The notes beneath the pieces are model-generated. The model was not told the DNA's origin. It saw only the letters and a program-made list of their open reading frames with translations, and made no database searches. Both the position numbers and the translations under genes were made by a program. From an uncultured bacterium (lineage in GTDB: Bacteria > Abyssobacteria > SURF-5): DNA of 18,935 bases. The stretch covers positions 1 through 18,935 of the forward strand of contig CAZEBC010000064.1 in assembly GCA_964510165.1 (NCBI GenBank), in the 5' to 3' direction. Below, one piece after another: positions 27 through 12,166 of the stretch; position 1 is the first letter of the stretch; every line of letters begins with the position of its first letter.

Positions 27-218
27 TCACGAAATATATCCTAATCCTTTCAGCTTTTTTTTGATTTCGTCTTCGGAGTCGGATTCATCGAGGCGCTCGA
101 TTTCCTTTTCGAGCACGTGGGTGATGAATTCCTCGACCGAGGAGTAGCCTGCGAGGTCGGAGAAGCGTTTGACTTTTTTCAGGAGTTCCTTGTCGAGTTT
201 GATTTTTGGGCCGAACAT
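27..218 (-). CDS. Small (63 aa) ribbon-helix-helix/CopG-like protein with acidic LxxLGY C-terminal tail
   Basis: ATG at 218 with GGAGG (224-228) 5 nt upstream. PKIKLDKELLKKVKRFSDLAGYSSVEEFITHVLEKEI fits a beta-strand/helix/G-Y-S-S/helix RHH pattern. Ends DESDSEDEIKKKLKGLGYIS. Confidence 0.75.
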   Translation of the reverse strand: MFGPKIKLDKELLKKVKRFSDLAGYSSVEEFITHVLEKEIERLDESDSEDEIKKKLKGLGYIS

Positions 219-281
219 TGGAGCCTCCAAATGGTTTGGGATTCAGTGTTTACGGGATCCGCTTCCCTTTTCGCCTTCAAA

Positions 282-305
282 GGGCGCGATGAATCGCGCC
301 CCTAC
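282..305 (-). repeat. GTAG-family REP palindrome (copy 1)
   Basis: Minus strand GTAGGGGCGCGATTCATCGCGCCC: GTAG tetramer followed by a perfect GGGCGCGAT/ATCGCGCCC stem, immediately after the stop of the upstream gene. Confidence 0.8.
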
Positions 306-309
306 ATTT

Positions 310-2301
310 TCAAAACACTGGTCTGCCGGTCATGGCGCCCGGCGGTTCGATTCCGAATTCTTTCAGGATAGTGGGCGTGATGTCGCGCAGGCGCGGGTCG
401 CCGATGTTCGCCTTTCGGTTGGAGAGGAACACGCCCGGTGTGATCTCTGCGGCGGCGCAATGGTCGCCGCTCCATTTGTTCTTGTTATCAGATACCAGCC
501 CATCCGGGTACGACCCGCTGGCTGATTCCCAGGAGACCCGGTAGCCGCGGTTGTACCCGACGATGGCGTCGGGGGCAGTGCGCTCGTCGGGATTCGTGAA
601 TATGTCCTTGCTCTTGTAGACGCGGAGTATGACCTGTTCGCCGTTTTCGGGGTCGCGCACCTGCAGCAGTTTTTGGGATATCTCATCGAGGAGCTTGTCT
701 TTTTGTGAGGCCGGCACAGGCCCCATGCTTTCGCGGCCCTCAAGGTTGATGTAGAGTCCGTTCAGGCCGAGTGCGTAGGCCTTGGTTCGGTACCAGTTAA
801 CATTCGAGTAGAACTCGCCCTCTTCGTCGTTGGTGAGGGTAGTGTAGCCGTTGTCGCGGAGCCATGTATTGAGGTTGAACCCGCGATAAAAGGGGGCGAA
901 GCCGTGGTCGGATATTACGATGAGTGTGGTTTGGGCGTCGACGCGGCCGAGCGTTTTCCCGAGCACCTTGTCCATTTCCTCGTAGAAGCGATAGAGTGTG
1001 TCGCCGTACTCGGCGGCGAGGTTGGCGTTGTAGAGCGGGTGCTTCGGGTCAATGAGCCACCAGAGCATGTGGGAATTCTGGTCGAGGCTGCCGAAGTAGA
1101 AGAACAGCAGGCCCGAGTCGAATCGGCCGAAAATGTGGTCGAACATCTTGAGGCGTTCCTGCAGGACGATATTGGCCTGTCCGAGGTAGTCCTTGACCTC
1201 GAGCACGTCGGATGAGAGCGCCTTGGTGTCCTCGGGCAGCCCCTGGGTATAGAAGCATCCGATCTCATGGGCGAGGTCGACGCAAAAATCGTCGGGCGTG
1301 GAAATGGGCATCGCGGGGTCGAGCGGGTCGATGTTGATGGGGGAGACATAGAGGCCGAAGTCGGGGTTGACCTCCTTCAGATAGAAACGGCATATTCCGC
1401 TGACGTGCACGAGGTATGGCACAGCGGTGAACTTGATGTGGGTCCACTCGCTCCATTGGCCGACTTTCAGGAGGATTTCCTGGTCCTGTACGACTACCTT
1501 TGCGATACCGTTTTCAGAGTCGGCGTACACGGTGAAAGGGACCTTCAGCCTGGGTTCGTCTTTTTGGAAGCTGTTTTCGGGGCCGACCAGATGAGCCTTG
1601 ACCACGCCGTCGTACACGTCCACCGGGTAGAGCTTTCCACCGGAGATTTCGTCTTCGTCGAACTTGAGGGGATTGTCGGTAAAGAAGGAGAACGTGCCGT
1701 AGGTGCCGAGGATATCGGGCGTGCCCATGTCAGAGAGCGAGATGCCTGGGCTTTCGGCAGGCGGGAAATTGGCGGGCATCTTGATCACCTGAGTGGGGAC
1801 GCCGTGTTCTTCGAGAATCTGCCAGAAGGCCCGTTCGCGGCGGAGCAGGACGGTCTTGCCGCTGGAGAGCGGGATCACCCAGTCACCGAGTGAAATGGTC
1901 TTTGAGGGTGGCAGCGCCTTGCTGGTTGAGAGATAGGGCATGTAGCTGTCGGGCTCGCGATGGATGAAGTCGTAGATGCCGTGTTTACCGGCGTCGGTAC
2001 CTGTGATGAAGTCGGACCAGGCGACGGGGCTCTGCGGCGGTATGCTTGTGCCGAGTCGCAGGTACGAGCCTTCGCGAGCGAGGCGGGCGAAGTTGGGCAT
2101 TCTGCCGTCGGCGATCAGTTTGTCGAGGATGTTGGGGTCCATGCCGTCGATGCCGAGGACTATGACTTTCTTGGAGGGGGCGGCGTCGGAAGAGCAGCCG
2201 AAATGTGAGCCTAGCGCGGCGCCCACGGTTCCGATAGCTGCGGTCTTCAAGAATTCGCGTCGAGAGACGTACCGAAAATCACAATGAGTGTCCCTTGCCA
2301 C
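310..2301 (-). CDS. AlkP-4: alkaline phosphatase superfamily protein (type I phosphodiesterase/NPP-like) with twin-arginine signal, possible Tat lipoprotein
   Basis: SRREFLK Tat motif, hydrophobic stretch and FGC lipobox-like Cys. Motifs GIDG, PPQSPVAWSDFITG (Ser nucleophile position), DQNSH, SDHGF, WSGDH. GTG start with GAGGGG RBS. Confidence 0.88.
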   Translation of the reverse strand: MARDTHCDFRYVSRREFLKTAAIGTVGAALGSHFGCSSDAAPSKKVIVLGIDGMDPNILDKLIADGRMPNFARLAREGSYLRLGTSIPPQSPVAWSDFITGTDAGKHGIYDFIHREPDSYMPYLSTSKALPPSKTISLGDWVIPLSSGKTVLLRRERAFWQILEEHGVPTQVIKMPANFPPAESPGISLSDMGTPDILGTYGTFSFFTDNPLKFDEDEISGGKLYPVDVYDGVVKAHLVGPENSFQKDEPRLKVPFTVYADSENGIAKVVVQDQEILLKVGQWSEWTHIKFTAVPYLVHVSGICRFYLKEVNPDFGLYVSPINIDPLDPAMPISTPDDFCVDLAHEIGCFYTQGLPEDTKALSSDVLEVKDYLGQANIVLQERLKMFDHIFGRFDSGLLFFYFGSLDQNSHMLWWLIDPKHPLYNANLAAEYGDTLYRFYEEMDKVLGKTLGRVDAQTTLIVISDHGFAPFYRGFNLNTWLRDNGYTTLTNDEEGEFYSNVNWYRTKAYALGLNGLYINLEGRESMGPVPASQKDKLLDEISQKLLQVRDPENGEQVILRVYKSKDIFTNPDERTAPDAIVGYNRGYRVSWESASGSYPDGLVSDNKNKWSGDHCAAAEITPGVFLSNRKANIGDPRLRDITPTILKEFGIEPPGAMTGRPVF

Positions 2302-2352
2302 GTTTACCCCCTCGAGGCGGTTGAACCGCCCCTGACCCCTAACATGTTGTTG

Positions 2353-4554
2353 TCAAATGTGTAGACCTGACCCCTCTAACACGCCCCTCTGTTCCTTCTT
2401 CAGGAGCGATCTGCCGTCCATGTAGGCGGGCGGTTCGACTCCGAAGATTTCGAGCGCGGTCGGCGCGATGTCGGTTATGTGGATGTCGCGGGCGCGCAGT
2501 TTCCAATTGGAGAAGAAGACGCCGGGCACGAGGGCGGGATCGATGCAGTGGTCGCCACTCCAGCTTTTCGTGTTGTCGTCGAAGACGGCTGCGGTAACCG
2601 TGCCGGTAACGGACTCCCAGGAGGCGCGGTAGCCCGAGTTGTATCCGATGATGAGGTCGGGCGCGTTGTCCTGGTAAGGTCCTGCGTATGTCTTCTCGCT
2701 GTCGTATATATTGAGGATGGCGACCTCGCCGGTTTGTTCGTCCTTCAAGCCGGCGAGTTTGCGTATGAGTTCGTCCTTCAGTTGGCGGGCTTGCTCGCCG
2801 GGCTCGACGACGCCGCGCGCCTCACGGCCCTTGAGGTTGAGGTAGAGCCCACCAAGCCCGAGCGCGAAGGCCTTTGTGTTGGCCCAATCTACGTTCTTGA
2901 ACCATTCGCCGCCCGGCTGGCCGTCGGTGAGGCGGAGGTAGCCGTTCTTGTGGAGCCAGGAGTTGAGGTTGACGCCGCGCCGGAACGAGTTGAAGCCGTG
3001 GTCGGACATGATGATGAGCACGTCGTTGTCGCCGAGTTTGTCGAGTGCGCGTCCGACAAGTTTGTCCATCTCGACGTAGAGGTTTTCGATGGCGCCCTTG
3101 AAGCGTTCGGTGTCCTTGTCGCGGTTGGCGGGGTGCTTGTGGTCGAGGTAACGCCAGAACAGGTGCTGGATTCTGTCGGTAATGTCGAACACGCAGACGC
3201 ACAGGCCTCGCCGCGTTTTTTGGAGCGCGTCGAAGAACATCTTTTCGCGTTCCTGCTGGATGAGGTAGCACTGTTTTTCGAAGGCGGCCTCCTCGATGAT
3301 GCGCTCATTGATGGCCCATGTGTCTTCGGCCAGGCCGAGGGTGGCGTAGCGGCCAAACAGTTTTGAGAGGTAGATGGAATAGATGAACGGGTGCGAGATC
3401 GGCAGCGCGGGTTTGGCCGGGTCTATGTTGATGGGGGTCATATACATCTCGAAGTGGGGGTCGGTCTCCTTGAGGAGCAACCGGCATATGCCCTTGACCT
3501 TCACGCCTGGCGCTGCCTTGAACGAGAGCGGGAGCCAGTCGGAGTATTCGCCCTTACGAAGGGGGACTGTTTGACCGTCGAGTCGAAGCTCGGCGGCATC
3601 GGCGCCGTTGAGCGCGACCTCGAACGGGATTTTCATCGTGACGGGGTTCTTGAGCATCGTGTTTTCGGGTCCGTTTATATGTGAGGAGATGCGGCTGCCG
3701 TTGCGCTGGACGCGGATTTCGGTTCCACCGGTGTAGTGGCCCTCGCTTCTTTCGCGGGTGGTGTAGTGGGTAAATGAACCCTGGGTGCCATGCAGGTCGG
3801 GCACGCACATTGCGGAGAGCAGCACTCCCCTGAACTTCTCGGGCGGGAACGTGATGGGGACCCTGATGACCGAGGAAAAGAGGCCGTGCTCGCCAAGGAT
3901 GGTCCAGAACGGCTTGCTCTTGCGCAGGAGCCGGATGTCGGGTTTTCCGAGCGGGACCGCGTATTTTCCGAGCGAAAGTGTTTTTGATGCCTTTCCTATG
4001 TGCGCGGAGGAGAGGTCGGGCAGATAGGTCTTCTTGTCGCGCGCCAGGAAATCGTAGATATTGTGGCGGCCGGGGTTAGCGCCAGTCATGAAGGAAGACC
4101 ATGCGACCGGCGAGATGGGAGGGCAGGTGGTGTTGAGTCGGCTGTAGGTTCCTGTTTCTTTCAATCTGGCGAAGTTGGGCAGCTTGCCCTCCGAGATGAA
4201 TGTGTCCACGAGGTTGGGGTCGAGACCGTCGAGGCCCATTATGACCATTCGGTTTGCGAGGCTCTTGCCATAGGCTTTCTTGCTTCGAAGACCTCGGAAG
4301 ATATAACGGATGGGCCATGCAAGGATGGAAAAGAATGCGAGAAAGATTGCCAGGAAGACGACGAAAAACGACGTCAGGAAGGCGAATCCGGCCCCGGGCC
4401 CGATGTAGGCGTGGGCCTGGGCGGGAAGCAATGCCACTGCGACGAGGGCGAGAGTGAGAGCAGCCAGAGTGTGGATTGAGGAGCGATTGGCGTGTGAGGG
4501 CGCACGCCGTGAGCCCCTACGATGTGGTCGAGAAGGGAGAGGATACGTGCGCAT
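2353..4554 (-). CDS. AlkP-3: membrane-anchored alkaline phosphatase superfamily protein (NPP-like) with signal peptide-YIGPG-TM module
   Basis: Signal peptide ending AQAHA, then YIGPGAG, a Phe-rich TM helix and a basic stretch (RYIFRGLRSKK). Motifs GLDG, PPISPVAWSSFMTG, DRIQH, SDHGF, WSGDH. ATG lies 6 nt after the upstream stop. Confidence 0.88.
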   Translation of the reverse strand: MRTYPLPSRPHRRGSRRAPSHANRSSIHTLAALTLALVAVALLPAQAHAYIGPGAGFAFLTSFFVVFLAIFLAFFSILAWPIRYIFRGLRSKKAYGKSLANRMVIMGLDGLDPNLVDTFISEGKLPNFARLKETGTYSRLNTTCPPISPVAWSSFMTGANPGRHNIYDFLARDKKTYLPDLSSAHIGKASKTLSLGKYAVPLGKPDIRLLRKSKPFWTILGEHGLFSSVIRVPITFPPEKFRGVLLSAMCVPDLHGTQGSFTHYTTRERSEGHYTGGTEIRVQRNGSRISSHINGPENTMLKNPVTMKIPFEVALNGADAAELRLDGQTVPLRKGEYSDWLPLSFKAAPGVKVKGICRLLLKETDPHFEMYMTPINIDPAKPALPISHPFIYSIYLSKLFGRYATLGLAEDTWAINERIIEEAAFEKQCYLIQQEREKMFFDALQKTRRGLCVCVFDITDRIQHLFWRYLDHKHPANRDKDTERFKGAIENLYVEMDKLVGRALDKLGDNDVLIIMSDHGFNSFRRGVNLNSWLHKNGYLRLTDGQPGGEWFKNVDWANTKAFALGLGGLYLNLKGREARGVVEPGEQARQLKDELIRKLAGLKDEQTGEVAILNIYDSEKTYAGPYQDNAPDLIIGYNSGYRASWESVTGTVTAAVFDDNTKSWSGDHCIDPALVPGVFFSNWKLRARDIHITDIAPTALEIFGVEPPAYMDGRSLLKKEQRGVLEGSGLHI
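4498..4520 (-). repeat. GTAG-family REP palindrome (copy 2), inside the 5' end of the AlkP-3 CDS
   Basis: Minus strand GTAGGGGCTCACGGCGTGCGCCC; same GTAGGGGC...GCCC frame as copies 1 and 3, with one stem mismatch. Confidence 0.7.
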
Positions 4555-4560
4555 TACTTC

Positions 4561-5871
4561 TCAGTACTCCATATATTGCAGGATGATCTGGGCCACGTCG
4601 GTGATATTAGGGTTTTCGGGAGGTTGTTGAGCCGACCATAGGAAGGCGTCGTCCCAGGTGTGCATCCCCGTGAGGGGAGTTCTCCCGAAGAGATCCTTGC
4701 GCTTTGGTGAGCCTTTGACGTCGTAGCCGTATTTTGAGACGACCACAAGGTCGGGGCCCTGCTCGGCAAATGGTCCGTCGTAGGCCTCTGCACGTTCAAA
4801 CACTTTCTCGACCACTGTCTCGCCGTCGAACGAGAGTTCGCTCAGGCCGGCCTTTATGTCGGCGGTTATGGGACGGACGTCTTCGGGTTTGACGCAGCCC
4901 TTTGGATATTTCCCGACGAGGTTGAGATAGATGCGCGAGGGGTCGAGCGCGAAAGCTCGGGAGCCTTCGGAGATCGCCTCGATCATGTCGGCATCGTCCT
5001 TCTCCAGTCGAAGGAAGCCCTCCTTCTTGAGCCACGCGTTGAGGTAGAACTCCTGTTTAACGCTCGTGAACCCGTGGTCCGAAAGGATGAAGAAGCCCGG
5101 CGTCGGGTCTTCGGCGTTAATGAGGCGCTTGAAGCGCGCGTGGAGCGATGCGATGAATGAGTCCACTCGCCGGTAATACCGGAGAAACGCCTCGTGGTGC
5201 GGATGGGAGGTGTTATCGAGCGCGTCCCAGAGGTAGTGATGGAGCCTGTCGGTGCCGGTGACTACGACTTCGAAGAGGTCCCATTTCTCGCTGTCCCACA
5301 GGGCGGAGACGGTTCGTTCGCGGGCGTCGAGGGTGCGGAACAGTTCATTGACGAGATAGGCGTGGTCTTCGCGGGCACGCATCGTGTCGATGTCGATTAT
5401 GTAGCCATCCTGCTCGAGCCGCGGCAGAAGCTGGGGGGGATGGACGGCCTTCTTGAGACTCAGCGCTACGAAGCCGGAGATGAGGACGCCTTCGATCGGG
5501 CGCGCCGGATAGGTGGACGGTTGATTGACGACGACACTCCGTTTCTTGGTTTCGGCCAGCTTGTCCCAGATAGTGGGCGCGCGCAGGTCGTTGAATGTGG
5601 GAAATCGGAGGCTGTATGAATGCGGCTTGAGGTCGGTAAAGCCGAAGATAGAGTGTCCGCCGGGGTTCTTGCCGGTCATGAAGCTGGGCCAGCTTACGGC
5701 GGATATTTCGGGCAGCGTGACCTGCATCTTGCTGAGGTGGCCGGTGCGCACGATTTCGGCGAGCGCCGGCATTGTGCCGTCCTGTGTGAATCGTTTGACG
5801 AGAGAGTAGGGGACACCGTCCAGCCCGAGCACACAGACGGGTTTTTTCTTTCTGCTCCAGAATGGGGTCAT
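4561..5871 (-). CDS. AlkP-2: cytoplasmic alkaline phosphatase superfamily protein (NPP-like)
   Basis: GLDG, PEISAVSWPSFMTG, DRLHH, SDHGF and TGMH motifs. No signal peptide; the catalytic beta strand begins at about residue 12. Confidence 0.88.
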   Translation of the reverse strand: MTPFWSRKKKPVCVLGLDGVPYSLVKRFTQDGTMPALAEIVRTGHLSKMQVTLPEISAVSWPSFMTGKNPGGHSIFGFTDLKPHSYSLRFPTFNDLRAPTIWDKLAETKKRSVVVNQPSTYPARPIEGVLISGFVALSLKKAVHPPQLLPRLEQDGYIIDIDTMRAREDHAYLVNELFRTLDARERTVSALWDSEKWDLFEVVVTGTDRLHHYLWDALDNTSHPHHEAFLRYYRRVDSFIASLHARFKRLINAEDPTPGFFILSDHGFTSVKQEFYLNAWLKKEGFLRLEKDDADMIEAISEGSRAFALDPSRIYLNLVGKYPKGCVKPEDVRPITADIKAGLSELSFDGETVVEKVFERAEAYDGPFAEQGPDLVVVSKYGYDVKGSPKRKDLFGRTPLTGMHTWDDAFLWSAQQPPENPNITDVAQIILQYMEY

Positions 5872-5920
5872 GGTGTTTTCGCCTTACAGTTCATAGCGCG
5901 GCGGAGGCGCAACCGAAGCT

Positions 5921-5952
5921 CCCTCACCCTGCCCTCTCCCAGGGGAAGAGGG
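5921..5952. repeat. CCCTCACCC..CCCTCTCCC/GGGAGAGGG-type intergenic palindromic repeat
   Basis: ccctcaccctgccctctccc-ag-gggaagaggg, an imperfect hairpin resembling a common bacterial extragenic repeat type, adjacent to REP copy 3. Confidence 0.55.
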
Positions 5953-5954
5953 TC

Positions 5955-5977
5955 GGGCGCATGCCATGCGCCCCTAC
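5955..5977 (-). repeat. GTAG-family REP palindrome (copy 3)
   Basis: Minus strand GTAGGGGCGCATGGCATGCGCCC; GGGCGCATG/CATGCGCCC stem. Confidence 0.8.
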
Positions 5978-6081
5978 AAACGCGCGACTGATGTCAACAG
6001 CCACCGATAATTCATTCATTCGGCAGTACGCCTCTACGAAACCATGCATTCGCAACGCACAAAATCGATCGTGACGAGGCA

Positions 6082-6681
6082 CTAGATGTATCCGAGGGAG
6101 CGGAGGCGCTCCTTGATCTTTGCTTCTTCTTCCTCGGTGTATTCGTCGGTTTCGGCAGCGGGGATATAGTTCATGAGTTCCAGGGTGCGTATGATCTTGT
6201 TGACGCTTTCCTGGATGGTTTCCTTGTCGGTCTCGACGACGACTTCGGGATTGAGGGGGTCTTCGTACGGGTCGTCCACTCCGGTGAAATGCTTGATTTC
6301 CCCTTTGAGCGCCTTTTCATAGAGGCCCTTCGGGTCGCGGTCCTTCAGGACGGGGACCGGGCATTTGCAGAACACCTCGACGAAGGAGCCTATGAGCTTG
6401 CGGTTCTCATCTCGAATCGCCCGATACGGCGAGATAGCGGCGGCGATGGCGATGACATCGTTTCGGGTGAGCAGGTGGCACACAAACCCGATCCGCCTGA
6501 TATTGATGTCGCGGTCTTCCTTAGAGAAGCCGAGGCCTTTGCTCAGGTTTTGTCTGACGACGTCGCCGTCGAGCACTTCGACCTTGAGACCTCTTTCGAG
6601 CAGCACATCCTCGATCCGGCGCGACAGCGTGGTCTTGCCGGAGCCTGACAAACCGGTAAACCAGAGAGTGAAGCCCTTCAT
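6082..6681 (-). CDS. cysC: Adenylyl-sulfate (APS) kinase with extra acidic LxxLGY tail
   Basis: [13 protein letters not shown]-loop, [31 protein letters not shown] and FTGVDDPYE motifs. AGGAGG RBS. Confidence 0.97.
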
Positions 6682-6699
6682 GCGTGTTCCTCCTTTGAA

Positions 6700-8076
6700 C
6701 TAGACGGCAGGCTTGCCGATCATTTCCTGCGGTATCTCTATGTTGAAGTGGCGGAGAATCGAGGGAGCGATATCATAAATGGAACACGCTTTCGGTCCGC
6801 CGGGCGTTATGCGCGAGTCGCGCCAGACGAATATGCCGTTCTCGGCGTGGTTGGCGTCATCAGGGCCTGTATCGTTCTCGTAGAGATAGACCGAGCCTAC
6901 GCCGACCGAGCCCGCCGAGCGCCAGTCCAGGTTGCCGAGGTAGACGATGAGGTCGGGCGGGATGCCGTTGGTTTCGCGGTAGACCTCCTCGGGCTTGAAG
7001 ACCTTGGTGTTTATGCATTTGCCATTTTCGTCCTCGATGCCCTCGAGCCGCGCCTTGAGTTCATTGCGGACGGTTTCGTATTCATTCTTCGGGATGACGC
7101 CGCCTGGCTCCCTGTCCTTCACGTTCATGAAGACCCGGCTGTAATAGCCGCCCTCGCCCCAGGCCCTGGTCTTGCTCCAGTCGACCATGCTGGTTTTGAA
7201 GCGGGTTCGTTGGGCGGGCTTTTCCTTGAGCGCAAGATACCCTTCTCGCTGGAACCATTCGTTTATGCAGATTGCGCCTTCCATGGTCTTTGCGCCGTGG
7301 TCGGAGACAACCATGACGGAGGTGTCGCCGGGCAGCGAGTCGAGGGTCCTTCCGATCTCGGCGTCCACGCTGACGTAATAATCATGGATTGCGTGTTCGT
7401 ATTTGTTGCCTGGCTCATACAGCCGGTGCTTCTTGTCGAAGTATCGCCAGAACCCGTGGTGAATGCGGTCGATGCCCATCTCGACCATGATTGCGAAATC
7501 GTAGGAATCCTTGTTGTAAAAATGCCGGAACGCCTTGAAGCGGCGTTCGGTCATGGTGTAGATGGCCTTGAGGAGGTCATCCTTTTCGTCGGTCCTGAAG
7601 TCCTCGACGTCAATGATGTAGTTGCCGTCCGCGGCCTGGTCGAGTTCGGCCTTTATCTCGTCGGGGTACGTATACTGGACGTCCTTGCCGGGAGTGAGGA
7701 AGCAGGCGACGAGCGCGCCGTTGAGCGGCTTGGGGGGATAGGTTTGCGGGACGCCGAAGACGAGTGAGCGCAGCCGGTTTCGGGAAAGGATGTTCCATAC
7801 GGTTTTCGCTTTGACGTACTTTGCATTGGCGAAATAGAGATCCTCGTAGTCATAGCTCTTGCGGTTACGGAAGCCGTAAAAGCCGAGCATGCCCGGGTCC
7901 TGTGAGGTCATCATGGCAGTCCACGCCGGCACGGTGATGGGCGGCAGGGTGGACTTGAGCGGGCCGTACATGCCATCCCGCACGAGTCGCTTTATGTTTG
8001 GCAGATCATCGAGCCACTGGTTGAAGACGAGGTCGGGTTCGGCACAGTCAAGGCCGAATATGAGCAGTTTTGACAC
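6700..8076 (-). CDS. AlkP-1: cytoplasmic alkaline phosphatase superfamily protein (NPP-like) between sat and cysC
   Basis: GLDC, PPITVPAWTAMMTS (Thr nucleophile position), DRIHH, SDHGA and DDANH motifs. GTG start with AGGAG RBS. No signal peptide. Confidence 0.88.
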   Translation of the reverse strand: MSKLLIFGLDCAEPDLVFNQWLDDLPNIKRLVRDGMYGPLKSTLPPITVPAWTAMMTSQDPGMLGFYGFRNRKSYDYEDLYFANAKYVKAKTVWNILSRNRLRSLVFGVPQTYPPKPLNGALVACFLTPGKDVQYTYPDEIKAELDQAADGNYIIDVEDFRTDEKDDLLKAIYTMTERRFKAFRHFYNKDSYDFAIMVEMGIDRIHHGFWRYFDKKHRLYEPGNKYEHAIHDYYVSVDAEIGRTLDSLPGDTSVMVVSDHGAKTMEGAICINEWFQREGYLALKEKPAQRTRFKTSMVDWSKTRAWGEGGYYSRVFMNVKDREPGGVIPKNEYETVRNELKARLEGIEDENGKCINTKVFKPEEVYRETNGIPPDLIVYLGNLDWRSAGSVGVGSVYLYENDTGPDDANHAENGIFVWRDSRITPGGPKACSIYDIAPSILRHFNIEIPQEMIGKPAV

Positions 8077-8088
8077 GGTAAATGACTC

Positions 8089-9249
8089 CTATCCTTCTTG
8101 TCGAAAAGGTCGAAAGGATTGAACCAGGATTTCGGCCACTTCGGGCCTTGTGAATTCGGGAGGCGGCATGATCCCCTGCCTCAACATCTCGCGGACCTTC
8201 GTGCCGCTGAGCATCAGGTGATCGCGCGAATTGTGAGGGCACGTCTTGACGGATGCCATTCCGCCGCACGCTCTGCAAAAGAACGCGTTGTCGAAGAACA
8301 ACGGGGTGATCCCGAGTTCGTCGGGTTCGAACTCGTTGAAGATATAGTGAGCGTCGAAGGGTCCGTAATAAGAGCCGACGCCCGCATGGTCGCGACCCAC
8401 GATAAAGTGGGTGCACCCGTAGTTCTTCCTGATGATGGCGTGGAATATCGCTTCCCTTGGTCCGGCGTAGCGCATGGCTGCGGGAAAGACGGAGAGGGCG
8501 ACTCGCGTCTTGGGATAATATTTTTCGAGGAGAACCTCATAGCATTTCATCCTGACTTCCGGCGGGATATCGTCGCCCTTGGTCTCGCCGACAAGAGGAT
8601 GAATCAATATGGCGTCGACCATCTCGAGCGCGCATTTCTGGAGGTACTCGTGCGCGCGGTGTATCGGGTTTCGAGTCTGGAAGGCGGCAACGTGACGCCA
8701 TCCCTTCATCTTGAACAGGAGGCGGGTTTCCTTGGGGTCGAGCCTGTACTCGTTCAGGATCCTATGGATTGGACGATTGAGCAGGGTAATCGGTCCGCCG
8801 AGATACACACCGCCGACGCTTTTGAGGTACCGATTACCGGGATGCGCCTCGTCGGTGGTCTGCAACACCTTCTGGCCTTCATATTCCTTGTCGACCTCGT
8901 ACTTGTCCTCCAGGTGAAGGACGCCGAGGAGGCTTCCGGCCTCGTCACGCATGGCCACATCGCTGCCGATCTCATAGTCGGCGTTGGAGTCTTTGACAGC
9001 GAGCGTGACGGGAATAGTCCAGGGCAGTCCCTTGGCCAGCCTCATGAGGTCCAGGACGCTCACGTAGTCCTCTTTCGACATGAAACCCTCGAGCGGACTC
9101 AGGGCGCCCACAGCCATCATCTCGAGGTCGGAGACTTCTCTGGAGTTCAGGGTTATGGACGGCATCGCAAGCGCGCGCTCGCAGAGGGCCTCGCGCTGAG
9201 AGCCCTCAGCCACGCGGTTTATGAGCCGTCCGCCGTGAGGTTTAATCAT
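8089..9249 (-). CDS. sat: Sulfate adenylyltransferase (ATP sulfurylase, Sat type)
   Basis: [48 protein letters not shown], CxxC..CPH zinc site and SGTKVR motifs. Confidence 0.97.
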
Positions 9250-9411
9250 AAGTAGCGCTTGAGTTTGTCCTTGGTGGTTTTTGATGGACGCACGCTGTGC
9301 GCCTTTAGAGAATCATGTATTGCTCATACCGACAACTTCAATTGTGACGGGCCCGTGCTTGAGGAATGAACTCCTCTTTTCGGCCGGTTCCGGGAACTGG
9401 GATAATACTTC

Positions 9412-9441
9412 ATTTTATTGATTTTGAGCGGGATATGTCAA
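9412..9441 (-). promoter_or_regulatory. sigma70-type promoter for the sat operon
   Basis: Minus strand TTGACA (9441-9436), 18 nt spacer, TAAAAT (9417-9412), in an AT-rich intergenic patch about 160 nt upstream of sat. Confidence 0.7.
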
Positions 9442-9574: not shown

Positions 9575-10735
9575 TCAGCCGAAGAACAGGGACCTCCTTT
9601 TCTTCAGCAATGAGTCCACCATGTCTTGCACCGTTGCTCGAAGCTGTCGGTTCAGGCGATTGATGATGACGTTATCGTTGAGAGCCGACTCGTCATATTC
9701 ATCGTACCTGATGACAGAGCCGAACTGAATGTACCACTTCGTGGGAAGGGGGATAAAGCCCAGCGGTCCCAGCCACGGGAACGTGGCGGAAAGCGGAAAC
9801 AGTGGCATCCCGAACATTTTCCCCAGCCAGTTGGCGTATCCGAGCACGATGTATATTTCCTCCGCGCCGACGACGGCGGTCGGTATCACAGGCGCCCGTG
9901 TCCGGATGGCAAGCCGAATGACGCCGCCGCGTCCGAAGCGGGCGAGGTTATAGCGGTTCTTGAATCCCTTGGCCATCCCCTTGATGCCTTCGGGGAACAC
10001 ACCGACAAGCTGTTCCTGCCTGAGCAGCCTCTCGGCGTTTTCCTGGCACGCCCTGACCTGGCCGACGGCGGTCATGAATTCGCTGGCGAACGGAAGCCGC
10101 CCAAACCAGTCTTCGATCATGAACCTAGTATACCGTTCGGCGGGATGGAATTTGTAGATGGCGGTCGCGATCATGGCGCCGTCGAACGGGAGCACGCCCG
10201 AGTGGTTGGAGACGATGAGCGCGCGCCCTTCATTCGGGATGTTCTTAAGCCCTTCGGTGGTCACCCGCCAGTATTTCTTGTAGAGGAACATCATGATTTT
10301 TTCCAGAGTGGTATCCACGTCGGGCACTTTGCCGAACTCGTCCATGCGTTCGAGGTGGTCAATGAGTTCATCGTAGTCTTGAGGAGGCGCGCCGGGCACG
10401 GCGGACAGGAGCTTTCCCAAGAGTCCCCGCTTCCTCCTCTTTCTTGCTTTTTCCAGACGGGTGGAGGGTCTGAGTTTCTTTATCTCGATGTCGGCGTCCT
10501 CGCCGTTCTCGCTGACGTCGTCTTCCTCTTCAATCTTCAGAGGTTTCAAGCGCCGCTCCAATCTGCTTTCAAGTCTTTGGAGTCTTTCCTCGACCTTTTG
10601 CTCGATTCGGGAAGCTATGTCATCGGCGCCCGCCTGGGGTGAATGTTTGGGATCGTCGTTGGACTTGCCCGAAGCTTTCCTTTTTCTCACGTTATTGGAG
10701 GGTCGAGCGCTTCTCTTTTTTTCTTCGGTAGCCAT
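9575..10735 (-). CDS. Lysophospholipid/glycerol acyltransferase family protein (PlsC-like) with charged N-terminal extension
   Basis: NHSGVLPFDG (HxxxxD), VFPEG, FGRGG and PVIPTAVVGAEE motifs. GAGG RBS. About 130 aa of charged or coiled-coil N-terminus. Confidence 0.9.
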   Translation of the reverse strand: MATEEKKRSARPSNNVRKRKASGKSNDDPKHSPQAGADDIASRIEQKVEERLQRLESRLERRLKPLKIEEEDDVSENGEDADIEIKKLRPSTRLEKARKRRKRGLLGKLLSAVPGAPPQDYDELIDHLERMDEFGKVPDVDTTLEKIMMFLYKKYWRVTTEGLKNIPNEGRALIVSNHSGVLPFDGAMIATAIYKFHPAERYTRFMIEDWFGRLPFASEFMTAVGQVRACQENAERLLRQEQLVGVFPEGIKGMAKGFKNRYNLARFGRGGVIRLAIRTRAPVIPTAVVGAEEIYIVLGYANWLGKMFGMPLFPLSATFPWLGPLGFIPLPTKWYIQFGSVIRYDEYDESALNDNVIINRLNRQLRATVQDMVDSLLKKRRSLFFG

Positions 10736-10756
10736 GAGCGGACCTCACTTTGCTTG

Positions 10757-11848
10757 CTATTCGCCAGTGGCAATACTGGTGAGCGATTCGATGCGTTCCT
10801 CGGTCTCCCGTTCCACCGGGCGTCCGACGCGGCCAAGTCGTTTCCTGTCGAGGAACTCCTCGAGCGCCTCCCAGGCCGTTTTCTTTGCCTCGAAGCCCAT
10901 CACTTCCTTGGCTCGCGAGCCGTCAGCGAGGCAGTGGAACTTGAGGAATTCGAGATGCTCGGGAGGGAACGGACCCTTCTTTGCAATCCAGAGCGCCCTG
11001 AAAAACTGCTCGGCCACGATGTGGGCCATTGGCAGCCGGGGCTTGTTGGCGAGCTTGAGGACCATGCCCAAGGGTATCACGCGTCTGCCGACGATGTTGA
11101 ACACGCCGGGGAAATCCTCGTCGATGGCGAGCTTGAATGCGTCAACCACGTCCTCTTCGGATATGAATTGGATCAAGGGGTTGTACCCGAGAACCGTCGG
11201 ACATACGGGCATGGAGAGATAATGAGTCCAACAGTTGTCTACCGATGGTCCCATGATGCTGCAATGCCTGAGGACCGTGACCATGGTGTCGGGATTGCTT
11301 TTCCAGAACCGGAGCAGTTGCCGCTCGATCTCGATCTTGTCGAGCTGAAACTCATAGATCATGTGCGGCCTGGGGGTGTAGTCCTCGGTCATGTAATGTG
11401 GGTTATCATAGTGCGCGCCATATACCATCGTGCGACTTGCCACCACCAGTTTCTTGACCGGGACCTCGGAGCATGCGGATAGAATGTGCATGGTGCCGAC
11501 GGAGTTGACCTCATGCGCGTAGGTGGTGTCTTCGCTGGGGCGCTGGAAGAAACCGGTGTGAACCACGATGTCCGGCTTCTGTTCGCTCATGATTTCCACG
11601 AGCATCTCATCGGCGCGCGGATTGGTGAGGTCGAGCTTGTAATACTTGGTCTTTCGGAGCTTGAGAGACGGTCTCTTAATGTCCACGGCCACGAGCTTTT
11701 CGTAGCTTGGGTCTGCCTTCAGTCGCTTGAGAATAGTGCTGCCGAGAAAGCCGGACGTGCCTGTCAGCAGGACACGGCGGCCGGATGGCGCTTCGCCCTC
11801 GCTGTCGCCGCCGAACGTTTTTGCGGCGTCTTTGAGTTGAGTGGTCAT
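10757..11848 (-). CDS. NAD-dependent epimerase/dehydratase family (extended SDR) protein
   Basis: TGTSGFLG Rossmann motif, VNSVGT, SRTMVYGA, QFISEED and FNIVG. Start reassigned to ATG 11848 with a GGAGGGGG RBS; the longer ORF N-terminus is low quality. Confidence 0.88.
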   Translation of the reverse strand: MTTQLKDAAKTFGGDSEGEAPSGRRVLLTGTSGFLGSTILKRLKADPSYEKLVAVDIKRPSLKLRKTKYYKLDLTNPRADEMLVEIMSEQKPDIVVHTGFFQRPSEDTTYAHEVNSVGTMHILSACSEVPVKKLVVASRTMVYGAHYDNPHYMTEDYTPRPHMIYEFQLDKIEIERQLLRFWKSNPDTMVTVLRHCSIMGPSVDNCWTHYLSMPVCPTVLGYNPLIQFISEEDVVDAFKLAIDEDFPGVFNIVGRRVIPLGMVLKLANKPRLPMAHIVAEQFFRALWIAKKGPFPPEHLEFLKFHCLADGSRAKEVMGFEAKKTAWEALEEFLDRKRLGRVGRPVERETEERIESLTSIATGE

Positions 11849-11884
11849 TCTCCCCCTCCGAGTGAATCCTTTAGCCTGCCAGAT

Positions 11885-11914
11885 ACTTTGCCATGCCGGA
11901 AAGCCCAATGTCAA
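11885..11914 (-). promoter_or_regulatory. Possible sigma70 promoter for the SDR-acyltransferase pair
   Basis: Minus strand TTGACA (11914-11909), 18 nt spacer ending in TGG, then a weak -10 CAAAGT. Confidence 0.35.
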
Positions 11915-12166
11915 GCGGAGCCGCAGGCTGCCGCAGGAACTGCTCCATCGCGGGCGCCTCGTGCGCGGAGACACGCCCCCCCTTGCGCCCGTGCAAGCAG
12001 ACTCAGTTGATTGAAAACTGCATCACTAATTATATATTCGTTGTTTGTCAATCGCAAGGGGAGATGTGCAGAAAGAATGGATGAGGAGCCTGTCCCGTAG
12101 TCGGGGGCATGCAAGAAATGCGGTGCAGGTGCGAATTCACTCGCCCAGTCTTTATGGCATTGGTCC

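Follow-up and report, generated by a model that had tools for sequence, protein, structure and literature searches.

A PAPS-synthesis operon with four NPP-like paralogues belongs to a conserved, modular gene cassette that may sulfate molecules across the bacterial inner membrane

Whether, and how, bacteria sulfate molecules beyond the inner membrane is the question raised by an operon on contig CAZEBC010000064.1 from an uncultured bacterium of the SURF-5 lineage; to our knowledge, all sulfation so far described in bacteria is the work of P-loop sulfotransferases in the cytoplasm. Within the window, by which we mean the whole 18,935-nucleotide stretch that was analysed, the genes for sulfate adenylyltransferase (sat) and for the adenosine 5'-phosphosulfate (APS) kinase (cysC) share one minus-strand unit with four genes of the alkaline phosphatase (AlkP) superfamily and one for a small protein, in the order sat-AlkP1-cysC-AlkP2-AlkP3-AlkP4-small protein. 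An earlier description made from the letters alone, here the sequence-only reading, had given this same content and order, which the Pfam and NCBIfam assignments bear out, and had suggested that the AlkPs hand the sulfate of cytoplasmic 3'-phosphoadenosine 5'-phosphosulfate (PAPS) across the membrane to the cell surface. The interpretation that we tentatively favour, short of calling it probable, is that the unit is one version of a conserved, modular, PAPS-dependent sulfation system that reaches across the inner membrane and probably acts on the envelope, in which AlkP2 would be the likeliest non-classical user of PAPS, AlkP1 an accessory, and AlkP3, AlkP4 and a membrane protein encoded directly downstream in relatives (c5) the part that crosses the membrane.

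The dedicated Sat and the sole CysC make PAPS. The sat gene (8089..9249, minus strand, as are all genes of the unit) encodes a 386-residue protein, a dedicated second copy in this genome, that matches PF01747 (336 bits), PF14306 and NF003166 (547.7 bits, curated cut-off 387), and cysC (6082..6681), the only copy in the genome by its single genomic match, encodes a 199-residue APS kinase that matches PF01583 (204.9 bits) and NF002059 (270.6 bits, cut-off 244). The two proteins also pass the curated equivalog or subfamily models TIGR00339 (436.6 bits, cut-off 322.95) and TIGR00455 (233.1 bits, cut-off 138.7), respectively. The four AlkPs belong to the type I phosphodiesterase/nucleotide pyrophosphatase (NPP) family PF01663 (cut-off 23 bits), and the models of AlkP1 and AlkP4 show an NPP-like fold. 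AlkP1 (6700..8076, 458 residues, 151.7 bits) and AlkP2 (4561..5871, 436 residues, 141.3 bits) look cytosolic, AlkP3 (2353..4554, 733 residues, 113 bits in two pieces) has a predicted membrane anchor and an inserted beta-rich domain, and AlkP4 (310..2301, 663 residues, 117.6 bits) has a predicted lipoprotein-like export signal and a beta-sandwich insert. Each carries the NPP-type two-metal ligand set (Asp, Asp/His, Asp-His, His) in the motifs GLDC/GLDG/GIDG, DRIHH/DRLHH/DRIQH/DQNSH, SDHG and a late His, together with a Thr or Ser nucleophile (T48 in AlkP1, S57 in AlkP2, S148 in AlkP3 and S91 in AlkP4), and these catalytic residues are kept in 57, 29, 9 and 13 orthologue sequences of AlkP1 to AlkP4, respectively. 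The metal-ligand motifs GxD, DxxxH, SDHG and terminal H claimed in the sequence-only reading are thus present and conserved in orthologues, and its claim of Ser/Thr at the nucleophile position holds as well, since the formylglycine motif Cys-x-Pro-x-Arg occurs in none of the four, the nucleophile instead lying in the context P-P-I-T-V-P-A-W and its relatives. The formylglycine sulfatase family PF00884 stays below its cut-off (18 and 16.9 bits against 25), and no P-loop sulfotransferase family (PF00685, PF13469 and relatives) matches any of the seven proteins at E<=0.01.

The suggestion of a sulfuryl relay depended on a conserved linkage of these AlkP clades to sat and cysC, and such a linkage is what we find. 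Loci centred on AlkP1 were taken from a one-genome-per-species scan (the best 80 of 524 confirmed relatives) and searched by tblastn with the window proteins. In 59 of the 80, cysC lies within 1 kb of AlkP1, and sat does so in 37; AlkP2 is present in 37, and the full set of cysC, AlkP2, AlkP3 and AlkP4 in 14, under labels that include Omnitrophota, Eisenbacteria, Latescibacterota, Krumholzibacteriia, Armatimonadetes and UBP1. Where cysC is not at the locus (21 loci), it was found elsewhere in 19 of the 20 genomes searched, the locus of the exception stopping at a contig edge. Furthermore, Sat and AlkP1 form a single stop-free frame of 794-855 codons in three of the 80 loci, all from Chloroflexota/Anaerolineae (L068:1-2382, L072:5138-7702 and L073:8813-11368). 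Labels among the AlkP1 loci as a whole include Acidobacteriota, Latescibacterota, Armatimonadota, Omnitrophota, Poribacteria, Chloroflexota, anammox Planctomycetota, Thermodesulfobacteriota and Verrucomicrobia, and since the synteny recurs across so many phyla the arrangement of the genes is far beyond chance. The linkage extends to AlkP2, AlkP3 and AlkP4, which occur in sat/cysC operons without AlkP1. Some flanking genes are lineage-specific and were excluded from the system: those for threonyl-tRNA synthetase, DnaK and the CCA-adding enzyme in Latescibacterota loci, for leucine-rich-repeat proteins, a sulfatase and an aminotransferase in Poribacteria loci, and for a two-component system in Desulfobacterota loci.

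Clustering of the flanks identified three further recurrent genes, namely c4, a ribbon-helix-helix (RHH)-like protein of ~75 residues encoded upstream of sat, c5, a membrane protein of ~274 residues encoded directly after the small protein in relatives, and c7, a PHP-domain protein. The contig of the window ends just before the position at which c5 would be expected. At the profile level, c5 matches the archaeal YidC-like protein MJ0480 (5c8j; Oxa1/EMC3 superfamily, DUF106) at residues 6-118 (E=4.6e-7), over transmembrane helix (TM) 1, the coiled coil and TM2, and differs from it in being bacterial, in a ~120-residue insert between TM2 and TM3 and in being dedicated to the cassette; when compared with DUF106 itself (PF01956), two of 12 c5 members match, weakly and below the cut-off. 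The small protein (27..230, 67 residues, RHH-like, ending in an LGYIS tail) has no Pfam match and on its own reaches the NikR model at E=0.0084 (16 bits), and a joint profile of the small protein and c4 matches the NikR RHH domain at E=1.3e-3 and 7.1e-3; from these matches it is probably a regulator or adaptor. How these genes travel is seen in the 80 best of 573 metagenome loci that have AlkP4 at their centre, where adjacency was found for AlkP3 in 58 loci, for the small protein in 58 and for c5 in 60, and for cysC in two, sat in two, an AlkP1-like gene in eight and AlkP2 in 12. Since mutual adjacency is high and adjacency to cysC, sat, AlkP1 or AlkP2 is rare, AlkP3-AlkP4-small protein-c5 constitutes a module of its own.

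That this module nevertheless belongs with PAPS synthesis is seen most clearly in Acidobacteriota, where 144 of 251 sampled genomes match the AlkP4 profile at E<=1e-100 (a tally that takes in the unpublished G105, G081 and G199, which enter no other result). A cysC gene was found in 59 of 60 genomes tested from the ~70 with an AlkP4 match at E<=1e-200, against 11 of 20 tested from the 107 without a match (Fisher p=6e-6, a value that overstates the case because related genomes are not independent). AlkP1 orthologues are present in six of these 60 genomes and in two of the 20, each beside cysC. Twelve Acidobacteriota cassette loci were compared, of which nine read c4-sat-cysC-AlkP2-AlkP3-AlkP4-small-c5; in the remaining three AlkP2 is missing, two reading c4-cysC-AlkP3-AlkP4-small-c5 and one sat-cysC-AlkP3-AlkP4-small-c5, so that AlkP3 and AlkP4 are able to sit directly behind cysC. 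AlkP1 is absent from all 12, so that the cassette can do without it. In the loci compared, the cassette has no conserved transporter, and no glycosyltransferase is conserved with it. Single in-frame stops (TGA, TAG or TAA) were reported inside five of the AlkP4-profile matches (G003:C45, G183:C13, G102:C3, G257:C41 and G223:C1), which probably reflect read-through of the N-terminal part into a neighbouring frame.

What takes the place of AlkP2 when it is missing bears directly on its possible role. A small P-loop sulfotransferase (~200 residues; PF13469 at 46-52 bits, cut-off 27) lies beside the cassette in all three Acidobacteriota loci that lack AlkP2, and homologues of it occur in seven more metagenome loci, six of them directly after AlkP3; among 18 open reading frames (ORFs) found in the slot after AlkP3, it is the sole recurrent family (6/18). 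None of these ten loci has AlkP2. Conversely, in the nine Acidobacteriota operons with AlkP2 none of the genome's P-loop sulfotransferase matches is near the cassette, and in the 12 AlkP2-bearing metagenome loci the small sulfotransferase had no match by tblastn. Read most simply, this pattern of gene content means that one and the same step is filled by either AlkP2 or the small sulfotransferase. It also follows, from the presence of the sulfotransferase beside AlkP3 and AlkP4 in ten loci, that these two proteins need not take sulfate from PAPS themselves. A classical sulfotransferase just downstream, which the sequence-only reading had regarded as an alternative source of all sulfation, is absent from the window, but the situation comes close to being realised in these ten relatives. 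Genes that could deal with adenosine 3',5'-bisphosphate (pAp) are found in the flanks. A CysQ-like gene of the inositol monophosphatase (IMPase) family lies directly upstream of the cassette in eight of the 12 Acidobacteriota loci and the PHP-type c7 adjoins the cassette in 10 loci, and among NCBIfam models they score highest with CysQ and 3',5'-nucleoside bisphosphate phosphatase, in each case below cut-off. These IMPase and PHP genes, which are unrelated to each other, are candidate pAp phosphatases, which fits pAp as a product of the cassette.

The sequence-only reading had called for a survey for the absence of cysH and classical sulfotransferases. Among 50 of the 80 AlkP1 genomes, chosen for their longer loci, PF13469 was found in 28; of the remaining 22, one has a weak, 19-bit match to PF00685 and four have strong matches to the PAPS/APS reductase-type family PF01507, with no strong PF01507 match in the other 18. 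In 17 of the 50, cysC lies beside AlkP1 and no classical PAPS consumer was found (18 if the 19-bit PF00685 match is discounted), and the closed chromosome behind locus L030 is one of these. A strong CysH-type match was found in none of the 12 Acidobacteriota cassette genomes. Both results favour sulfation over assimilation.

The proteins had been called differently localised, and distinct sites do exist, although there are three rather than four, AlkP1 and AlkP2 both lacking a signal and looking cytosolic. The N-terminus of AlkP3, of a type common to eight of nine sequences examined, comprises a signal-like helix with an Ala-x-Ala-type site, a short conserved motif, a long hydrophobic helix and a run of 7-10 Lys/Arg residues. 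Because this basic stretch follows the TM helix, the positive-inside rule predicts that the catalytic domain of AlkP3 probably faces the cytoplasm. The motif itself (window 4395-4421, residues ~45-53, and orthologues) reads Ala-His/Ser-Ala then Tyr-Ile-Gly-Pro-Gly-Ala-Gly-Phe, ending GPGAGF; it is placed between the signal-like helix and the TM helix, and if the signal is cleaved it would leave a tiny conserved periplasmic N-terminus. AlkP4, by contrast in its predicted site, has a twin-arginine translocation (TAT) signal (TIGR01409, 22.8 bits, cut-off 16.7), and several of the 12 orthologues examined have lipoprotein-type Sec (lipobox) signals, from which AlkP4 is predicted to be exported.

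One sequence feature is shared by CysC and other proteins of the cassette. CysC ends in a 26-residue C-terminal extension (residues 174-199; 6085..6162, minus strand) consisting of an acidic stretch and then a helix ending LGYI. This tail is present on 39 of 44 CysC proteins of related loci, and on AlkP1 where CysC is without it; its residues Y181, R192, L193, L196, G197 and Y198 are invariant among 25 sequences, and both RHH-like proteins, the small protein and c4, carry the same tail. It looks like a repeat of the last helix of CysC itself, because canonical APS kinases end in a similar helix. Co-folding of AlkP1 with CysC residues 158-199 gave a score of 0.39 against 0.01 for the best of three controls, with at least 77% of contacts agreeing between runs and a partner confidence score (pLDDT) of at least 55; this is weak support. 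Of 80 solved complexes 58 attain the mark applied here, as do 2 of 110 mismatched pairs; at scores of 0.60 or below only seven of the 80 do so, together with both of the mismatches. Thirteen further proteins of the organism's own genome (G000) end in a helix and an LGY[LIM] tail, nearly all of them PF01663 or sulfatase-like (C1:4267-5733; C24:26815-28233; C28:14245-16575; three genes on C53; C62:1440-3617; C73:15758-17131; C77:10555-11820; C103:104-1363; C110:6218-8377; C127:3525-5705; C252:1177-2646). As they include cytosolic-looking proteins, multi-span membrane proteins and lipoproteins with signal peptides, the tail is not tied to one compartment. The idea that the tail tyrosines are sulfation acceptors was considered and dropped.

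The model that would bring these observations together runs as follows. PAPS made by Sat and CysC would be consumed in a cytoplasmic step that releases pAp, for which AlkP2 is the best candidate because a classical sulfotransferase fills the same place in the cassette elsewhere and the two are never found together. AlkP3 and c5, with the exported lipoprotein AlkP4, would then pass or process a sulfated, probably lipid-linked, intermediate across the inner membrane. AlkP1 would be an accessory of the PAPS-making part, perhaps docked by the CysC tail, and might carry out sulfuryl transfer or remove pyrophosphate (PPi) or pAp. Finally, the two tail-bearing RHH-like proteins may regulate or tether the system. 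The literature search, supplementary files excluded, returned nothing on this clade, on the cassette or on AlkP-fold sulfotransferases; the name COG3379 came up once, in a paper on another subject.

Several points weigh against this model. We know of no enzyme of the AlkP/NPP fold that uses PAPS as a sulfuryl donor. The c5 gene is not in the window and was not found by tblastn in the organism's own assembly; nor was c4, and the one match in that assembly is a PHP-type homologue on C73. Physical linkage of the second module to PAPS synthesis is often missing, as cysC is near only two of the 80 AlkP4-centred metagenome loci. The absences of PAPS consumers are soft because most of the genomes are metagenome-assembled, and P-loop sulfotransferases are present somewhere in 28 of the 50 AlkP1 genomes and in 11 of the 12 Acidobacteriota cassette genomes. 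PF03567 was found in none of the 22 AlkP1 genomes without PF13469, and PF17784, PF09037 and PF19798 in no genome searched, blanks that say little because no control genome matched any of these families either. That AlkP2 and the sulfotransferase exclude each other may reflect only a few evolutionary events, the co-occurrence counts are raw and uncorrected for relatedness, and the topology of AlkP3 is a prediction from charge. Moreover, PAPS has ordinary consumers in this very organism, which has a cysH-like gene on C1 and, in an exopolysaccharide (EPS) cluster on C66, two adjacent P-loop sulfotransferase genes after a polyprenyl glycosylphosphotransferase (G000:C66:9234-13950, L083). This is probably a sulfated exopolysaccharide cluster, and would necessarily depend on the window's cysC; the operon could simply supply PAPS to these sulfotransferases and to the cysH-like gene. 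Feeding ordinary consumers makes the case from the window by itself weaker and leaves the comparative case as it was.

The main rival, which we consider doubtful, starts from these last observations. It holds that Sat and CysC feed classical sulfotransferases and CysH encoded elsewhere, that AlkP1, and perhaps AlkP2, only clears by-products, be it PPi, whose removal would draw the unfavourable Sat reaction forward, or pAp/PAPS, and that AlkP3, AlkP4 and c5 have nothing to do with sulfuryl transfer and are merely co-located or co-regulated. Were it true, a large family annotated only as 'alkaline phosphatase family protein' would gain a servicing role in PAPS metabolism. The classical consumers of the organism's own genome fit such a role, as does the position of AlkP1 between sat and cysC and its fusion to Sat in 3/80 loci, which resembles PAPS synthase and the ATP sulfurylase-inorganic pyrophosphatase fusion known from stramenopiles and haptophytes (described in PMC2275785) in joining Sat in frame to a second enzyme, although the partner here is an NPP-like AlkP and not APS kinase or a family-I pyrophosphatase. 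That we know of no precedent for sulfuryl transfer in this fold speaks for the rival as well. A pyrophosphatase check that covered family I and the membrane H+-pyrophosphatase found the soluble family-I enzyme (PF00719) in none of five genomes (the organism's own and four others, three of which are recorded as complete chromosomes) and the H+-pyrophosphatase in all five, which is not decisive. AlkP1 adjoins cysC more often than sat (59 against 37 of 80), which is the wrong way round for a pyrophosphatase serving Sat, and the organism's dissimilatory sat copy on C8 has no AlkP1 neighbour. With regard to pAp, the role of phosphatase would be vacant in many genomes, since the CysQ model TIGR01331 is matched above its cut-off in only 3/50, although at E<=1e-10 it matches in 44/50 and so does not discriminate; against this, separate candidate pAp phosphatases already lie beside the cassette. 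The 17 of 50 cassette genomes without a classical consumer are also difficult to accommodate. Helper roles, finally, cannot explain the linkage of the whole clade, as operons of AlkP2, AlkP3 and AlkP4 with sat/cysC exist without AlkP1.

A bolder form of our preferred reading, which we regard as unlikely, is that the NPP-like clade COG3379 holds a new class of metal-dependent sulfotransferases with a covalent Ser/Thr-sulfate as intermediate. PAPS would be used by AlkP2 and perhaps by AlkP1 or AlkP3, and AlkP3, the YidC/DUF106-like c5 and AlkP4 would move the sulfate, borne by a lipid-linked carrier, through the inner membrane to an acceptor in the periplasm or at the surface. If so, it would be the first sulfation route outside the bacterial cytoplasm, and present in more than 10 phyla. 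Very unlikely, in our estimate, is the relay in its literal sense, in which all four AlkPs form one sulfuryl chain through covalent Ser/Thr-sulfates from cytoplasmic PAPS to a surface molecule. The nucleophile and metal ligands kept in all four proteins, their predicted sites in the cytosol, at the inner face of the membrane and in the periplasm, the 41.6% identity of AlkP3 and AlkP4 despite predicted positions on opposite sides of the membrane, the YidC-like membrane protein in the cassette and the recurrence of the full set in 14/80 loci are all as such a chain would have them. Against such a chain stands the separability of its modules, AlkP1 orthologues being present in only 6/60 genomes with AlkP3/AlkP4 and AlkP2 missing from 3/12 operons, and where AlkP2 is missing a classical sulfotransferase is present, so the PAPS-using step is ordinary there; we are also aware of no precedent for Ser/Thr-sulfate intermediates in NPP-like enzymes. 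Of the relay first suggested, therefore, the tie to PAPS genes and the 17/50 genomes without a consumer stand in its favour, and the separable modules, the classical sulfotransferase in 10 loci and the consumers in the organism's own genome do not.

Scavenging, in which external and imported esters of sulfate or phosphate would be hydrolysed by the AlkPs and the freed sulfate assimilated through Sat and CysC, is the least probable of the alternatives, for although the closest folds (NPP, PafA and PhnA) are hydrolases, AlkP4 appears to be an exported lipoprotein, sulfatase-family genes lie near some loci and the genome holds ~20 PF01663 or sulfatase-like genes, assimilation requires a PAPS/APS reductase, of which there is no strong match in 12/12 Acidobacteriota and 18/22 AlkP1 genomes, three of the four AlkPs are predicted to be on the cytoplasmic side, the cassette has no conserved transporter, and the partners that recur with it (a sulfotransferase and the candidate pAp phosphatases) point to sulfation and away from assimilation. 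Use of PAPS as a donor of its 3'-phospho-AMP moiety, and operation of the pathway in reverse so as to conserve energy from sulfate esters, were both considered and dropped.

Returning to the preferred reading, the cassette can be set beside systems that are already understood. Characterised NPPs are, as far as we know, secreted enzymes or ecto-hydrolases. The window AlkPs share with the NPPs (Xac NPP, ENPP1/3/5/6), PafA and PhnA the family PF01663, the two-metal site and the Thr/Ser nucleophile with its following Asn, and find their top structural matches among them. The AlkP1 model (AF2, pLDDT 73.5, its two most conserved loops being of low confidence) is closest in Foldseek to Xac NPP, ENPP6 and ENPP1/3/5, and the AlkP4 model (pLDDT 88.5, predicted TM-score (pTM) 0.87) to Xac NPP, PafA, PhnA and ENPPs; for both, E is 1e-9 to 1e-12 and the probability 1.00, with query TM-scores of merely 0.34-0.46. 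Unlike these enzymes, the window AlkPs show no significant sequence match to solved chains (searches of the PDB returned nothing significant for AlkP1, as single sequence or profile, for AlkP2 or for AlkP3), AlkP3 and AlkP4 have the extra beta-sandwich insert and AlkP1 has flanking invariant Arg residues among 175 invariant columns in an alignment of 15 sequences, they share their operon with sat and cysC, and a place on the cytoplasmic side is predicted for three of the four. A protein atlas held only generic 'alkaline phosphatase family' clusters. AlkP1 and AlkP2 are 25% identical, and the 41.6% identity of AlkP3 and AlkP4 is measured over 623 residues. AlkP1 is unusually well conserved, being 67-92% identical to 119 listed database matches other than the window's own protein, the source names including Poribacteria, Hydrogenedentota, Schekmanbacteria, Eisenbacteria, Armatimonadota, Planctomycetota and, as the closest among those listed, Candidatus Abyssubacteria (92%).

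EptA, LtaS, OpgB/MdoB and BcsG are AlkP-superfamily enzymes that act through covalent Ser/Thr intermediates and, outside the cytoplasm, furnish envelope molecules with a charged head group; they belong to PF00884, with about five N-terminal TM helices, a periplasmic domain and membrane phospholipids as donors. As members of the same superfamily they offer a parallel, and the predicted exported AlkP4 could act likewise. The AlkP domain of the cassette proteins is however of PF01663, with PF00884 below cut-off, one or two helices in AlkP3 precede a domain whose predicted position is inside, and the cassette itself encodes PAPS synthesis. In classical PAPS-dependent sulfation clusters, sat/cysC or nodPQ accompany a P-loop sulfotransferase, examples being NodH and the synechan xss genes. 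These resemble the cassette in setting dedicated Sat and CysC beside candidate PAPS-using enzymes, and some versions of the cassette do hold a small P-loop sulfotransferase, but the version in the window has none, and the constant partners are AlkPs, a YidC-like protein and tail-bearing RHH-like proteins. The cassette offers candidates for a new sulfotransferase fold (AlkP2), for a pair of paralogues on opposite faces of the membrane (AlkP3 and AlkP4) and for a bacterial DUF106/YidC-like partner.

In the organism itself, dsrA, dsrB, the second sat and aprA lie together on C8 (G000:C8:7829-14340, L081) with no AlkP gene beside them, from which the organism is predicted to have a dissimilatory sulfur pathway with its own copy of sat. 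The assembly (4.17 Mb in 325 contigs, rated 97% complete) contains the window as the entire contig C64, so that gene content past the small protein is not readable. Profile searches of the whole window found no PAPS/APS reductase, sulfite reductase or P-loop sulfotransferase among its proteins, in agreement with the sequence-only reading, and its other genes encode an acyltransferase, an epimerase-family protein, a coiled-coil protein, MarC, a CitMHS-type permease and a spermidine-synthase-like membrane protein. The intergenic gaps, in order from sat, are 12, 18, 210, 6, 51 and 79 nt; those of 12, 18, 6 and 51 nt had been given correctly, and those of 210 and 79 nt passed over. The 210-nt gap between cysC and AlkP2 (5872..6081, minus strand) contains no ORF that we could see and measures ~18 nt in the nearest relative (L001); an Rfam search returned zero matches for it and for the window as a whole. 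A promoter-like site lies upstream of sat (9412..9441, minus strand; TTGACA, an 18-nt spacer and TAAAAT, 11 of 12 consensus positions). As four such sites were observed across the region against 3.0 expected from shuffles, this is a mere consensus match, in the right place.

Directly upstream of sat (window 9575-11974) lie two genes, one for a PlsC-type acyltransferase whose N-terminus is long and charged and one of the epimerase/reductase family. The pair is kept only in the two closest relatives, L001 and L002, and could supply a lineage-specific lipid acceptor or have nothing to do with the system. A membrane protein of the MprF-flippase type (PF03706, 152.9 bits) is encoded divergently beside c4 in six loci (L012:8338-9513 and five others of Latescibacterota type). 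In some Acidobacteriota (L027:15748-17052, L032:13258-14301 and L050), AlkP2 is followed by a cytosolic sulfatase-family protein with an LGY tail and by a weakly matching radical-SAM protein, which may be a sulfatase maturase.

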